Shown here: positions 21,899 through 26,812 of the stretch, piece after piece
Layout: every line of letters begins with the position of its first letter
How positions within the stretch are numbered: the first letter of the stretch is position 1
Assembly: GCA_041669225.1 (NCBI GenBank)
Contig: JBAYBO010000001.1
Coordinates: 1-43,092, forward strand
Direction: 5' to 3'
Length of the DNA: 43,092 nucleotides
Source of the DNA: Bacilli bacterium
GTDB taxonomy: Bacteria > Bacillota_I > Bacilli_A > RFN20 > CAG-826
Translations under genes and position numbers: made by a program
Notes under the pieces: model-generated
Seen by the model: the letters and a program-made list of their open reading frames with translations, nothing else
Databases searched by the model: none
What the model was told of the DNA's origin: nothing

Positions 21899-22342
21899 CT
21901 AACGGAAAACGTCTTCGGCATCGATGAACTTTTTTGTTTTTTCTTCTTTAGTTTTTACAAAACGGGCGACGACAAATAAATCATCATTTTTAGGATTAAG
22001 CTTAATGATTTTATCGACACGAACCACGAGATTATTTTTTGCTTCTTTAATTAGAATTGCTGATTCATCTATTTCGTGAGGCACATCAATAAATTTATCA
22101 ATTGAATCGCTATGTCCATTACCGAGTTTTAAGGCGATGGATTTTTGTTCGCGACTAAGGGCACTGACACCAATCACATCACCGACTTCAAGATTCTTTC
22201 CCGTGACGCTTTGCTCACCAATCAACAAACCAATCACATCATAATCAATCATCATCGACCAGGCACAAATCATCGCAAATTTGCGATTGTGTTTGATGTA
22301 ACAAACAGCGTTAGCCCCAGCGAGAAAAGCGTGTAACCCCAT
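21899..22342 (-). CDS. Flavin reductase-like (FMN-binding split-barrel) domain protein
   Basis: 147 aa. The pattern ...MICAWSMMIDYD...VSALSREQKSIALKLGNGHSDSIDKF... resembles the flavin reductase-like domain. The match is moderate and from memory only. Confidence 0.5.
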   Translation of the reverse strand: MGLHAFLAGANAVCYIKHNRKFAMICAWSMMIDYDVIGLLIGEQSVTGKNLEVGDVIGVSALSREQKSIALKLGNGHSDSIDKFIDVPHEIDESAILIKEAKNNLVVRVDKIIKLNPKNDDLFVVARFVKTKEEKTKKFIDAEDVFR

Positions 22343-22347
22343 AATAT

Positions 22348-23208
22348 TTACTTTTTAGAATCATCATATTTAATGATGCTTTGGTATAAATCGGGTCGTC
22401 GATCGCGAAAAACACCCCAGGCAATACGTTTCTTATCGATTAATTCTAGATTGAATTCAGCAACGGCGATATCTTCTTCAGTACGCGAAAGTTCAGCGAC
22501 AAGATTGCCATCTTCATCAGCAATAAAGCTACTGCCAAAAAAAGTCATACTGGAATTCTCATCGCTTTCGGTGCCGACGCGGTTCGAAGCAAGAACAGGA
22601 ATAATATTTGCGGCAGCGTGTCCCTTCATTGTGTTTTGCCAATGATCCTTTGAATCTTTTGGAAGAACTGGCTCGCTGCCGATGGCGGTTGGATAAACAA
22701 TCAATTGCGCGCCCAGCAACGCGAGGGAACGGGCAACTTCAGGAAACCACTGATCCCAACAAATCCCCACACCGACACGGCCGTATTTTGTCTTGAATAC
22801 TTTAAAACCGGTATCTCCTGGCGAGAAGTAAAACTTTTCTTCATAGCATTCACCAGTGGGGATATGAGATTTGCGATAAAGGCCAAGATTATCACCATCC
22901 GCATCAATCATAACCAAAGAATTAAAATGAACATTCCCGGCTTTTTCAAAGAAAGATAAAGGCAAGACAACATTAAGTTCTTTGGCTAGTTTCTGAAACC
23001 TTGAAATTGTTAGTGATGAGTCTAATTCTTCAGATAAATCAAAGTAATCATACTTTTCTTTTTGACAAAAATATGGTGTTTTAAATAGTTCAGGAAGCAG
23101 AATGACTTGTGCGCCTTTTGCAGCGGCAATTCGCACCATTTGTTCGGCTTTTGCAAGATTTTCGTCAATCTTCCAAGACATGCGAAATTGAGTAATGGCT
23201 ACTTTCAT
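22348..23208 (-). CDS. aguB: N-carbamoylputrescine amidase (nitrilase superfamily)
   Basis: LLPELFKTPYFCQ motif and catalytic Cys context GICWDQWFPE. The AAGGAGAA SD lies inside the last codons of the upstream gene, and the ATG is 2 nt after its stop. Confidence 0.85.
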   Translation of the reverse strand: MKVAITQFRMSWKIDENLAKAEQMVRIAAAKGAQVILLPELFKTPYFCQKEKYDYFDLSEELDSSLTISRFQKLAKELNVVLPLSFFEKAGNVHFNSLVMIDADGDNLGLYRKSHIPTGECYEEKFYFSPGDTGFKVFKTKYGRVGVGICWDQWFPEVARSLALLGAQLIVYPTAIGSEPVLPKDSKDHWQNTMKGHAAANIIPVLASNRVGTESDENSSMTFFGSSFIADEDGNLVAELSRTEEDIAVAEFNLELIDKKRIAWGVFRDRRPDLYQSIIKYDDSKK

Positions 23209-23209
23209 C

Positions 23210-25822
23210 TTAATTATTCTCCTTTTTAGTTTCAGGTATTTGCATAGTTATACAGTGAACGTTTCCACCGCCAAGCAGAATTTCGCGAGAAAATACTTGA
23301 ATAATCTTTTTATCCGGATATAGTTCGACAAATTGACTATAAGCTAGTTCGTCTTCTTTGACCCCAAAAGCCGGAAGAATGACAAAATTCTTTCCTTGAT
23401 AATAATTAATATAGGAGGCTGCTAAACGCATATTCGGTTCCCTTTTTTTAGCATTAGAGCGCGAACCGCGAATGCCTTTGGCTTCTTCCTTTGTCATATA
23501 CATCGGATGCGGAAGTCTAACTTTGACAATTTCAAACGGATTACCATCGGCATCCGTTTCGTTTTTCAGCACTTTATAGGCTGCTTGTGAATATCGATAT
23601 TGCGGATCACTGCGAACGGTTGTCCAAGCCAAAGCAACAACGCCAGGACGAATAAAGCACGCCATATTATCGACGTGTTCGCTCGTTTCATCTTGGTAAA
23701 TACCATTTTTCAGCCAAATAACCTTGCTTATACCAAGATTGGTTTTGAGTGTCTCTTCGATTTCTTGCTTATTCATATGGGGGTTGCGTCCCTTAGAAAG
23801 GAGGCACGCCTCAGTCACCAAGCATGTCCCAAGCCCATCGACATGAATACTTCCGCCTTCAAGAACAAAATCATCAATGTAATAACTATCGAGATTAAGT
23901 TTCTTTGATAAGAGGCTAGAAAGTCGATCATCGTCCAAATAGTTTGAGTACAGTCCGCCATGCTCCGTGCTCCAGGCATTAAAACGGAAGTCAACGGATC
24001 TTAGTTTAGAACCTTTTTTAACAAAAATCGGCGAATTGTCACGCGCCCAAGCATCGTTATACTTTATTTTGATAACGTCGACGTTCTCGATATTTGAAAA
24101 TTCGCCGGATGCGACATCATAAATGCTCGGATGGATTCCAACGAGCACGGGTTCAAACTGGGCGATAGCGCGAACGACATCTTTGTAAGCCTCGCGGGCC
24201 GGTTTGGCTCCATCTCTCCATGTATCTTTGCGAAATGGTAGAAGGATGAAGGTCGCCTGATGGGAGTCTCCTTCAAACGGCATCGAATAACCATCATTAT
24301 GAGGAGTTGTGATGCGCTTTGAGGAATAATCAGTATAAGCCTTTTGATAAGACGAGAATTTCTTCCAACGATCTTTATCGACAACATTAACGGTCCCATC
24401 ACTATAATCACTAATTAATGTGATTCCTGTTTGTTTATATGTCTTTATCCGTTCAATTAAATCGCTAGTAAAAATTTCTCCTGGAATAATCAAAGGAATG
24501 CCCGGAGGATATATCATAATTGATTCTTTCGATATTTCGTTCGCTGCATTCATAATTGAGATGCGTTTGCTAGGTGCATAAAAAGCCGAACGGGGTCTTA
24601 CTAATAAATATGGAAAGCCAACACTGAAGGAGTGACGAGGATAAGTAATTTTACGATTATAATGCTCACGGCTAATGTCTTTTAAAGCCGCAAAAAGATG
24701 CCTCAGGTGTTCTTTTTTTGTGCCGATGGCAAGAATTCCCAAAACAACGTATGTCTCGGCTAATTCAACCTGAATTCGATACTTCTCCTTAAGAAGATAA
24801 TATAAATCGAAGCCACTTAAATCGAGATGATCAAGTTCGAGAACAAGCTTGGTTTCATCATAATCGTAACAACCTTTTTGAAGAAAATGTTCGCGTCCGC
24901 GCGAAATGAAGCCCTTGATTTTTTCTATTTGTTCACGAGCATATTTGGCCAGTTCAAGAACGTTGTCCATTGCTTCCTGACCTTTGGTGGCGGCAAAATG
25001 ACGGGCTGCGTCAATACTAGCAATTAAAATGTTAGAAGGCGAAGTAGTGCTAATAATGCTCAAGGATTTTTGAACTTCACTTGGCGAAACGCGCTCACCT
25101 TGAAGGAGAAGGACGCTTGACTGTGTTAATGAACCACCTGTCTTGTGAAACGAAACACTGGAGAGGTCAGCACCACACTCCATCGCTGATAGAGGACCAT
25201 TTTTACTAAAGTAATAATGGGCGCCGTGGGCTTCATCAACTAAAACCGACACATTATGCGCATGGGCGAAATCGGTGATTTCCTTTAAATCATTTACTGC
25301 CCCAAAATATGTTGGGTTTATAACAAGCAGCGCTTTGGCGCTTGGGTAACGAATTATCGCTCGTTTATAATCAGCAACACTCGGCTGATTGGCAATTTCG
25401 AGCTGCCGATCGATTTTTGGCATTACATAAACGGGGATCGAACCAGATAAGACAAGCGCACTAATGATTGATTTATGAACATTACGAGGAAGAATAATCT
25501 TATCTTTGGCCTTGCACACCGACATAATCATGGCGATGATGCCACTCGTCGTACCATTCACCAAAAAGAAACTGTGATCAGCGCCCGCAAAATCAGCCAT
25601 AAGCTCTTGGGCTTGGGCAATAACACCAGTCGGGTGTTGCAATGAATCAAGTCCGATTGGAGCATTAATATCACTTTGAAAAGTTTTTCCGCCAAGGAAA
25701 TCTTTTAGTTTATTTTCAACATTGCCCATATGGTGTCCAGGGACATCAAAAGGCGATATTTTTTCGTTAACATATTTGATTAGCGCATCAAGAAACGGTG
25801 TCTGATTTTGGTTTAATTTCAT
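23210..25822 (-). CDS. speA-aguA: Fusion protein: Orn/Lys/Arg-decarboxylase-family (SpeA-type, PLP) N-terminal domain + agmatine deiminase C-terminal domain
   Basis: 870 aa. Residues 1 to ~490 are the decarboxylase: FDVPGHHMG, PLP-Lys in SFHKTGGSLTQSS, and the C-terminal PPGIPLIIPGE. Residues ~505-870 are the deiminase: GYSMPFEGDSHQATF..., AWARDNSPIF, and catalytic Cys in GGGNVHCITMQIP. There is a single uninterrupted frame. Confidence 0.85.
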   Translation of the reverse strand: MKLNQNQTPFLDALIKYVNEKISPFDVPGHHMGNVENKLKDFLGGKTFQSDINAPIGLDSLQHPTGVIAQAQELMADFAGADHSFFLVNGTTSGIIAMIMSVCKAKDKIILPRNVHKSIISALVLSGSIPVYVMPKIDRQLEIANQPSVADYKRAIIRYPSAKALLVINPTYFGAVNDLKEITDFAHAHNVSVLVDEAHGAHYYFSKNGPLSAMECGADLSSVSFHKTGGSLTQSSVLLLQGERVSPSEVQKSLSIISTTSPSNILIASIDAARHFAATKGQEAMDNVLELAKYAREQIEKIKGFISRGREHFLQKGCYDYDETKLVLELDHLDLSGFDLYYLLKEKYRIQVELAETYVVLGILAIGTKKEHLRHLFAALKDISREHYNRKITYPRHSFSVGFPYLLVRPRSAFYAPSKRISIMNAANEISKESIMIYPPGIPLIIPGEIFTSDLIERIKTYKQTGITLISDYSDGTVNVVDKDRWKKFSSYQKAYTDYSSKRITTPHNDGYSMPFEGDSHQATFILLPFRKDTWRDGAKPAREAYKDVVRAIAQFEPVLVGIHPSIYDVASGEFSNIENVDVIKIKYNDAWARDNSPIFVKKGSKLRSVDFRFNAWSTEHGGLYSNYLDDDRLSSLLSKKLNLDSYYIDDFVLEGGSIHVDGLGTCLVTEACLLSKGRNPHMNKQEIEETLKTNLGISKVIWLKNGIYQDETSEHVDNMACFIRPGVVALAWTTVRSDPQYRYSQAAYKVLKNETDADGNPFEIVKVRLPHPMYMTKEEAKGIRGSRSNAKKREPNMRLAASYINYYQGKNFVILPAFGVKEDELAYSQFVELYPDKKIIQVFSREILLGGGNVHCITMQIPETKKENN

Positions 25823-25897
25823 AGCACATAAATCTTATATTATCTTCACTATGTGCGCAACCAAAAGTAATTTTCATTGAAAATTATATAAAAGTAA

Positions 25898-26812
25898 CTA
25901 CTTCGAGAAATCAGTGAGAAAGAATTCGGCCATCGCCTCATTCGTCCTTTTCCCTTCTTTACTATCCGGCAAAACGAGATTATAGACATGAGCAACTTTC
26001 ATATCGAGGGATGGTTCAAATTGATAATGATGTGGTATTTCCTGTCTCAATAATTCATCGTGTAGCATAAAACTGTGTTTCTTTAGAAAGTCATAGTGAC
26101 AAGAAGAAACAAAAATCGGGTCTGGTTTTACCTTTTTAATATAGTAGGCCGGATTATTCATTTTCAAAAATTCTCCATCTAGATAATTGCTAGAAAAAAG
26201 GGTAGGCATCGCTGACTTATGAATAATGCGCTTAGCATATTCAGCGACTTCTTCAAAATCATACACCGCACAATTCATACCAACACATTTGATTTTGATA
26301 TTTGGTAGACGGTCAATTCTATAATATCTTTGTGCTTCTTTTGATTTAAAGACGAAATCGGTAAGAAGAGCAAGATGGCCACCGGAAGAATCGCCAAGAA
26401 GAATAAAATTATCAAAAAATAAGTCATATTTTTCTTTGTTTTTTTCAAGAAAATTCAAGGCGGTGAAAATATCAACAATTTGCTCATAGATACTCGTTCC
26501 TTTTTTTACGAGAGTGTAATTAATCGAAACAACTGAAAAACCTTTCGCAACAAAATATGAATTGAAAATGTAATTAAGACCTTTGTAACCAAAGGCATAT
26601 GAGCCACCGTGAATATCAAAAATAAGATGGTTGTTACTTTTCGCCGTTGGATGATAAATATCGAGAAGATGCTCAACATTGCCGTCGTCAACGTAAGGAA
26701 TGTCTTTCCAAACCCGCATTTCGGTGAATGGTTTCATCTTCTTGATGCGCTTGGCTTCGTAGATATCTAAAGTGCGCTTAAAAATTTTTAATGAGGGACG
26801 GAAGATAAACAT
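25898..26812 (-). CDS. Alpha/beta hydrolase (esterase/lipase-like)
   Basis: HGGSY oxyanion region and the GDSSGGH nucleophile elbow. A strong AAGGAGGTGA SD lies upstream. Confidence 0.75.
   Translation of the reverse strand: MFIFRPSLKIFKRTLDIYEAKRIKKMKPFTEMRVWKDIPYVDDGNVEHLLDIYHPTAKSNNHLIFDIHGGSYAFGYKGLNYIFNSYFVAKGFSVVSINYTLVKKGTSIYEQIVDIFTALNFLEKNKEKYDLFFDNFILLGDSSGGHLALLTDFVFKSKEAQRYYRIDRLPNIKIKCVGMNCAVYDFEEVAEYAKRIIHKSAMPTLFSSNYLDGEFLKMNNPAYYIKKVKPDPIFVSSCHYDFLKKHSFMLHDELLRQEIPHHYQFEPSLDMKVAHVYNLVLPDSKEGKRTNEAMAEFFLTDFSK

Follow-up and report, generated by a model that had tools for sequence, protein, structure and literature searches.

A predicted arginine decarboxylase–agmatine deiminase fusion in uncultured, small-genome Bacilli

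Introduction

Arginine decarboxylase (ADC), agmatine deiminase (AguA) and N-carbamoylputrescine amidase (AguB) together convert arginine to putrescine, and in the characterised systems they are separate proteins, as in the plant ADC/AIH/NCPAH route and with the ancestral-form ADCs (aADCs) of B. subtilis, S. pneumoniae and C. difficile (PMC8503589). In the stretch of DNA analysed here (43,092 nt of a Bacilli bacterium, contig JBAYBO010000001.1 of assembly GCA_041669225.1; hereafter the window), a first-pass annotation made from the sequence reported a decarboxylase and an agmatine deiminase joined in one uninterrupted frame and followed by aguB. This locus raises the question of whether such a frame is a genuine gene, which substrate its decarboxylase would use, how it arose and what the joining of two consecutive enzymes would bring. 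The gene very probably encodes a bifunctional enzyme of single fusion origin, and since this enzyme and the coupled AguB would between them cover all of the steps, two genes would make up the whole route from arginine to putrescine.

The fusion gene and its domains

The listing of open reading frames (ORFs) contains a single ORF of 870 aa with no internal stop, and the Pfam and NCBIfam scans agree with it in placing both a decarboxylase and an agmatine deiminase in that frame (Table 1). In the Pfam scan of the 870-aa protein, OKR_DC_1 spans residues 8–311 (241.5 bits), OKR_DC_1_C residues 372–454 and PAD_porph residues 514–863 (347.5 bits). The domain boundaries of the first-pass annotation are thereby correct to within ~10 residues, and its motifs lie where it placed them, SFHKTGG at 224–230 with the pyridoxal phosphate (PLP) lysine K227 and GGGNVHC at 851–857 with C857. 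The remaining decarboxylase motifs are NGTTSG (89–94) and VDEAHGAH (195–202, including D196), and all three are invariant in 84 fused homologues. As PF01276 begins at residue 8, there is no space for an N-terminal REC wing; the closest structure, 2X3L, is likewise wing-less.

The C-terminal domain matches the TIGR03380 agmatine deiminase model at 428.5 bits against a cut-off of 381.8, over model positions 1–356 of 357. Its motifs are WARD (592–595), EGGS (655–658), H716-x-D718 and the C857 motif given above; D595, E655, H716, D718 and C857 are invariant in the 84 fused homologues. The Arabidopsis enzyme AIH (3H7C) is 42% identical (E value 3.5e-91), and the W-x-R-D, EGGS, H-x-D and GGGN-x-HC blocks align. 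C857, H716, D718 and D595 are taken to have the catalytic roles of their counterparts in AIH and AgDI structures. The model of this domain has the pentein fold, matching 3H7C, 1VKP, 2JER and 6NIC in Foldseek with target-normalised TM scores of 0.94–0.95 and rmsd of 1.4–1.7. The same program found no PDB chain that spans both domains, the top query-normalised TM score being 0.45.

The aguB gene begins 1 nt after the fusion gene ends (TAA at 23212–23210, ATG at 23208–23206), and its Shine-Dalgarno sequence sits within the fusion gene's final codons, as had been noted in the first pass. From this arrangement aguB is predicted to be translationally coupled to the fusion gene. The translation of aguB contains E40, K113 and C150, presumably the nitrilase-type triad common to the superfamily. 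In every fused locus with DNA reaching that far, aguB lies directly downstream; a degenerate lineage is described separately below. The AguA domain and AguB score above their equivalog cut-offs, in keeping with the statement that the three activities jointly lead from arginine to putrescine. The N-terminal PLP domain would decarboxylate L-arginine to agmatine through a Schiff base on Lys227, the pentein-fold domain (Cys857, His716 and Asp718) would hydrolyse agmatine to N-carbamoylputrescine and ammonia, and the coupled AguB would release putrescine.

Table 1. Features of the speA-aguA locus, in window coordinates
Feature	Coordinates	Strand	Remarks
Fused speA-aguA gene	23210..25822	-	870 aa, single open frame
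N-terminal domain, residues 1–495	24338..25822	-	wing-less ('ancestral form') decarboxylase of the aspartate aminotransferase (AAT) fold, PLP-dependent by prediction; PF01276 + PF03711
Connector, residues ~482–512	24287..24379	-	fixed length, conserved residues, predicted helices
C-terminal AguA domain, residues 505–863	23234..24310	-	TIGR03380 above cut-off
aguB, N-carbamoylputrescine amidase	22348..23208	-	286 aa; TIGR03381, 444.2 bits against cut-off 410.25
aguB Shine-Dalgarno sequence, GGAG	23219..23222	-	inside final codons of the fusion gene, read from sequence
Upstream region of the fusion gene	25823..25886	-	candidate own promoter with very short leader, tentative
147-aa ORF	21899..22342	-	5 nt after aguB; PF01613 (flavin-reductase-like), 18.9 bits, below cut-off 27
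Alpha/beta-hydrolase esterase (BD-FAE family)	25898..26812	-	304 aa; PF20434, 90.9 bits; 75 nt upstream of the fusion gene

The two domains were originally described as joined by a short Ser/Tyr/Lys-rich linker. The composition is indeed that of the window sequence, but the connector is not a loose one. Its length is fixed, with not a single gap across residues 470–530 in an alignment of 138 fused sequences; W486, P507 and D510 are invariant, and Y492, D498 and Y499 are each conserved in at least 90%. In the AlphaFold model (mean pLDDT 85.1, pTM 0.81) the connector appears as two short helices, 487–491 and 493–502, and block pLDDT values over residues 471–520 are 84–93. The pTM value suggests a defined mutual orientation of the two domains, and the connector is modelled as probably helical and rigid rather than floppy.

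Distribution and authenticity of the fused frame

The window belongs to a metagenome-assembled genome (MAG) of 1.075 Mb in 86 contigs, 87.9% complete, a setting in which an assembly or sequencing artefact might have merged two neighbouring genes. A full-length match in one frame was found in 99 of 401 genomes of the order, and two more matches end at contig edges; the 401 genomes are an even sample of the order, and the fused count is thus about a quarter of the sampled species. Among GTDB species genomes the fusion frame is open in seven of the eight species of the window's genus, and also in other genera and families. The database search for the same architecture returned at least 120 protein clusters at 90% identity, drawn from NCBI, ENA, JGI and Logan assemblies, of 860–900 aa and 62–91% identity, all with PF01276 and PF04371. 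Since an open frame, with its indel-free junction, is kept in ~100 independently assembled genomes and across several sources, an artefact is ruled out for practical purposes and its probability is negligible. Recoding or a split gene was considered for the many matches flagged '1 TGA' or '1 TAA' and is rejected: the 12 inspected by tblastn have no internal stop, and the sole stop aligned in them, at query position 868, terminates the gene itself.

Most genomes of the order measure 1–2 Mb. The related records are MAGs of uncultured Bacilli, Erysipelotrichaceae, Acholeplasmataceae or Bacillales; rumen is the named source among them, and the remaining isolate names hint at environmental metagenomes. 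The fused proteins are labelled 'agmatine deiminase' at NCBI and 'lysine decarboxylase' at JGI.

Substrate of the decarboxylase domain

Wing-less 'ancestral' decarboxylases of the AAT fold comprise ADC, ornithine decarboxylase (ODC), lysine decarboxylase (LDC) and the non-polyamine enzyme YaaO, whose gene is typically found just upstream of tmk (Li et al. 2021, PMC8503589). Enzymes of this form measure about 480–490 aa, combine an OKR_DC_1 major domain with OKR_DC_1_C, and have their PLP lysine in S-x-H-K and the fold-type-I aspartate in D-x-A-H; K227 and D196 of the window's protein occupy these two positions. There is no curated equivalog model for this decarboxylase subfamily, and the NCBIfam decarboxylase models, which represent the long 'winged' forms, all match far below their cut-offs. 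By genomic context and phylogeny, the N-terminal domain is most likely an arginine decarboxylase. Stand-alone homologues in the order are 44–52% identical to it, and the neighbours of six of these were scanned. In three loci (L031, L033 and L034) the stand-alone decarboxylase is followed by an arginase-family (agmatinase) gene whose ORF overlaps its own, and in L032, L034 and L035 it is preceded by metK; no gene for thymidylate kinase, the marker of YaaO, was found among the scanned neighbours of the six. The window's fusion gene is not adjacent to tmk either. In the tree of ADC domains the speB-linked stand-alone genes are successive outgroups of the fused clade, and P0138, a representative of the Fusobacterium-type fusion of ancestral-form ODC (aODC) and arginase, is far from the window's clade. 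Orthology to the characterised aADCs is argued from genomic context. The Bacilli enzymes assayed by Li et al. showed ADC activity only (PMC8503589). The window's genome, 87.9% complete, has a single OKR_DC_1 gene, and no decarboxylase of the alanine-racemase (AR) fold, arginase or agmatinase was found in it.

Origin and fate of the fusion

Two loci, L026 (Bacillales bacterium SUG1176) and L027 (uncultured bacterium O27_L1), have the same gene order as the window, a coupled aguB and an ADC that is 58–60% identical and ends in a tail with a W-x-x-[YF] motif. They differ in encoding two proteins: the ADC ORF has kept its own stop, and aguA, which is followed by aguB, lies in another frame and starts within the last ~8–30 nt of the ADC gene (L026:7380-7620, L027:7400-7600). 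The ADC tails of both already contain V-x-V-I-D-x-x-x-W-x-x-Y, which matches the first half of the connector. These overlapping speA and aguA genes are likely the pre-fusion arrangement. In the ADC tree the fused sequences form one clade (SH-aLRT 89), with L026 and L027 as its sister (joint clade 95). In the AguA tree, which like the ADC tree is unrooted, forcing the fused AguA domains to be monophyletic costs 3.8 log-likelihood units (p-AU 0.11) and is not rejected. At 50% identity the fused family reduces to about two representatives, which fits one compact origin. Because of the single clade in the ADC tree, the overlapping genes of the sister loci and the non-rejected monophyly of AguA, a single fusion is the simplest history, and these sequence comparisons make it most likely that an overlapping gene pair fused a single time, in an ancestral member of this small-genome order of Bacilli. 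The event was probably the loss of a stop or of the frame offset between overlapping speA and aguA, by which the C-terminal tail of the ADC and the N terminus of AguA would have become the rigid connector.

One sub-lineage, represented by P0122 and P0289–P0292 (850–866 aa; P0122-type loci L041, L042 and L043), has kept the fused frame and an ADC domain 59–62% identical to that of the window, with all PLP motifs; active fused proteins are no closer to the window in this domain. Its C-terminal domain is only 17–24% identical to the window's AguA and is altered in all of the catalytic blocks: WARD is replaced by NAS[ED] or similar, EGGS by PxRS, EHVD by Y[KH][LF]SD and NVHC by NL[SR][ED]. No aguB was found downstream in the two loci with downstream DNA (L041 and L042), where a helix-turn-helix (HTH) regulator stands instead. 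In the ADC tree P0122 nests inside the fused clade, beside G027. Judged by its sequence, the P0122-type domain looks like a pseudoenzyme domain retained after loss of the pathway. This lineage bears on the argument, made in the first pass, that a decarboxylase fused to AguA should be arginine-specific. Arginine specificity draws indirect support from the relatives that are linked to agmatinase or to aguA-aguB. The argument from fusion is weakened by a sub-lineage that keeps the fusion with a dead AguA; because the fusion outlives the coupled reaction there, the argument is a hint rather than proof. The window's own protein has preserved both predicted active sites, and its aguB is intact as well, so the assignment as ADC holds for it.

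A second type of protein, P0231 and P0293–P0297 (1050–1061 aa, from a few Clostridia-type MAG clusters), resembles the window's in that a decarboxylase is N-terminal to a full AguA domain (TIGR03380, 445 bits). It differs in that the decarboxylase has the non-homologous alanine-racemase fold, with sub-threshold best NCBIfam matches to biosynthetic ADC, in an extra middle region of ~250 aa and in the absence of an adjacent aguB (loci L044 and L045; a small GNAT-family gene is next in L044). In the AguA tree the P0231-type domains stand apart as a clade of their own with full support, and this type is a fusion in its own right, between a non-homologous decarboxylase and AguA. Stand-alone relatives of the P0231 type, ~690 aa in length, consist of a decarboxylase with a GNAT-like C terminus.

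Role of the pathway

Genes for spermidine synthase (SpeE), AdoMet decarboxylase (SpeD) and an AR-fold decarboxylase of the CASDC type were not found in the window's genome or in those of three genus mates, and in G015 and G027, relatives at family and order level, the Spermine_synth matches are only marginal, barely over the cut-off; the genomes searched for polyamine genes are 72–94% complete. As the genes for spermidine synthesis were not found, putrescine is probably the final polyamine, provisionally given this level of completeness. Argininosuccinate synthase was likewise not found in the genome search, and arginine is therefore probably imported.

A catabolic agmatine deiminase system, which combines AguA with putrescine carbamoyltransferase, carbamate kinase and an antiporter, was also considered and rejected, as no putrescine carbamoyltransferase was found in the 87.9% complete genome. 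The sole OTCace-family gene of this genome, on another contig, is OTC/YgeW-like and reaches 227 bits on TIGR04384, the putrescine carbamoyltransferase model, whose cut-off is 500 bits. That gene belongs to a ygeW/ygeY-type cluster (contig C6, L058:4177-8998, minus strand) which also includes a YgeY-family selenium-metabolism-linked hydrolase (693 bits), a cysteine-synthase-like PLP enzyme and a threonine-synthase-like enzyme.

Alternative explanations

The N-terminal domain might instead be an ODC, an LDC or a YaaO-like enzyme, with the AguA domain acting on agmatine from the environment. Such paralogues of ancestral form exist, the NCBIfam matches and the lack of an equivalog do not decide for ADC, and context has been a poor guide in other cases; against this, the domain falls in the tree within homologues whose genes adjoin those for agmatinase or aguA-aguB, is distant from P0138 and adjoins no tmk, the Bacilli enzymes assayed by Li et al. 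(PMC8503589) showed ADC activity only, and the genome search gave no alternative candidate ADC. We consider a substrate other than arginine very unlikely. The pathway, even with arginine as its substrate, might serve in pH homeostasis or to liberate nitrogen, and putrescine would then be excreted. The route from arginine to putrescine consumes a proton and releases two ammonia, as such a protective or catabolic role would have it, and no further putrescine-using enzyme was found. The energy-yielding system, however, requires a putrescine carbamoyltransferase, for which the OTC/YgeW-like gene falls far short, AguB is the biosynthetic partner, and no antiporter gene is adjacent, so that a catabolic role is unlikely and putrescine synthesis is preferred.

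As to what the fusion brings, its likely benefits would be a fixed 1:1 stoichiometry and the immediate removal of agmatine beside a product-inhibited decarboxylase: enzymes of the aADC type are strongly product-inhibited (Li et al. 2021, PMC8503589), and a tethered AguA would clear agmatine at its source. We infer that agmatine may be channelled between the active sites, as was proposed in the first pass. A more far-reaching form of this idea is a two-enzyme machine of fixed geometry, in which the connector would seat the AguA site by the exit of the decarboxylase so that agmatine is consumed before it inhibits or escapes, selection for coupling would have driven the independent AR-fold fusion, and the dead AguA would be a structural or regulatory pseudoenzyme; taken as a whole this is rather doubtful and is put forward tentatively. 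The fusion may also be functional with no kinetic coupling at all, a neutral or economical change of frame in shrinking genomes, with agmatine diffusing freely. As speA and aguA of the sister loci already overlap by ~8–30 nt, one indel would fuse them, the genomes are small at about 1–1.5 Mb, and the lineage with the dead AguA tolerates the fused state uncoupled. This is a possibility to be taken seriously, if short of probable, since the constancy of the connector, with its invariant residues, and the confident model with its defined domain arrangement speak for a selected geometry; AguA has also been fused independently to a decarboxylase of the non-homologous AR fold, and the decarboxylase type in question is strongly inhibited by its product.

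Several points weigh against a bifunctional, coupled ADC-AguA enzyme of single origin. Its arginine specificity is argued from context and phylogeny, and context has misled before: a decarboxylase adjoining speD/speE in Leptospirillum proved to be an LDC, and the F. nucleatum aODC is accompanied by a dead arginase homologue (Li et al. 2021, PMC8503589). The sub-lineage with the degenerate AguA suggests that the fused state can persist without a coupled reaction, and the structure model behind the idea of coupling is a monomer. With the genome 87.9% complete, other polyamine genes can be called absent only provisionally. In the AguA tree the unfused sequences are interspersed, weakly supported, with the fused ones, so a later fission may have occurred.

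Comparison with known systems

In S. pneumoniae, aguA and aguB are in the same locus as the aADC gene. The SP_0916-type aADC route of this species (PMC7531197, PMC8503589) matches the present one in its chemistry and in its enzyme families, a wing-less AAT-fold ADC, a pentein-fold agmatine deiminase and a nitrilase-fold N-carbamoylputrescine amidase, also within the class Bacilli; it differs in that its three enzymes are separate polypeptides, whereas here the first two form one chain with a predicted rigid connector, and in that no downstream genes for spermidine synthesis were found here. The F. nucleatum aODC (783 aa) is fused to an inactive arginase/agmatinase homologue, an arrangement found in Fusobacteriaceae only (Li et al. 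2021, PMC8503589). That fusion differs from the present one in both halves, as its decarboxylase is an ODC and its partner an inactive arginase fold; the window's C-terminal domain is PAD_porph and not Arginase, whereas P0138 carries PF00491. It resembles the P0122 lineage in that a fusion is retained with a dead second domain. SpeD-SpeE and CASDH-CASDC fusions are known (Green et al. 2011, as cited in PMC6356823); going by that citation, they too join consecutive polyamine enzymes in one polypeptide, but the enzymes are different ones (diamine-to-triamine steps) and so are the taxa.

Other proteins in the set combine one of the two domains with something else. In P0141 (734 aa) a methyltransferase of the NNMT/PNMT type is joined to a decarboxylase of ancestral form, in P0237 (556 aa) a 5-formyltetrahydrofolate cyclo-ligase is joined to AguA, and in P0213 (754 aa) AguA is preceded by 400 N-terminal residues without a Pfam match. 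A full-text literature search, with most subscription journals outside its reach, found no account of an ADC joined to AguA. The fusion is a new arrangement of well-known enzymes; the chemistry is not new.

Upstream region and neighbouring genes

Upstream of the fusion gene, the palindrome TAATTTTCA-A-TGAAAATTA lies at 25886–25868 (minus strand), followed by a weak −35 element TTGGTT (25864–25859), a variable spacer of 16 nt and the −10 element TAATAT (25842–25837), from which 14 nt lead to the ATG. There is no Shine-Dalgarno sequence before this ATG in the upstream sequence. Four blocks are conserved in seven species of the genus, TAATTTTCA-N-TGAAAATTA, TTGGTTGCG, ATAATATAAGATTTA and TGCTATG, and the spacer varies freely. 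The blocks are tentatively read as a candidate operator and a promoter with a short leader; a scan for promoter consensus sequences did not flag the region. A hairpin abutting the start codon was considered as well, but as its 5' arm falls in the stretch that varies among the seven species, a conserved hairpin is unlikely and the promoter spacer is preferred.

Genus mates carry 72% identical copies of the 147-aa ORF behind aguB, and the loci of other genera yielded none; whether this ORF belongs to the unit is uncertain. Homologues of the upstream esterase (34–35% identity) also precede the fusion gene in L008, L016 and L017, from other lineages, so this neighbourhood may be a recurrent one, although it has no evident tie to polyamines.

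Implications

With the fused proteins labelled 'agmatine deiminase' or 'lysine decarboxylase', the capacity for putrescine synthesis is mis-scored in metabolic reconstructions, and the group affected is a large set of uncultured Bacilli from gut, rumen and groundwater. The fusion provides a link of the Rosetta-stone kind, which helps to assign ADC function in a family whose specificity is unreadable from sequence. Overlapping genes, a fusion, and a fusion with a dead domain make up a natural series on the rise and decay of enzyme fusions, and the fused protein is a simple system for asking if fusion relieves product inhibition.

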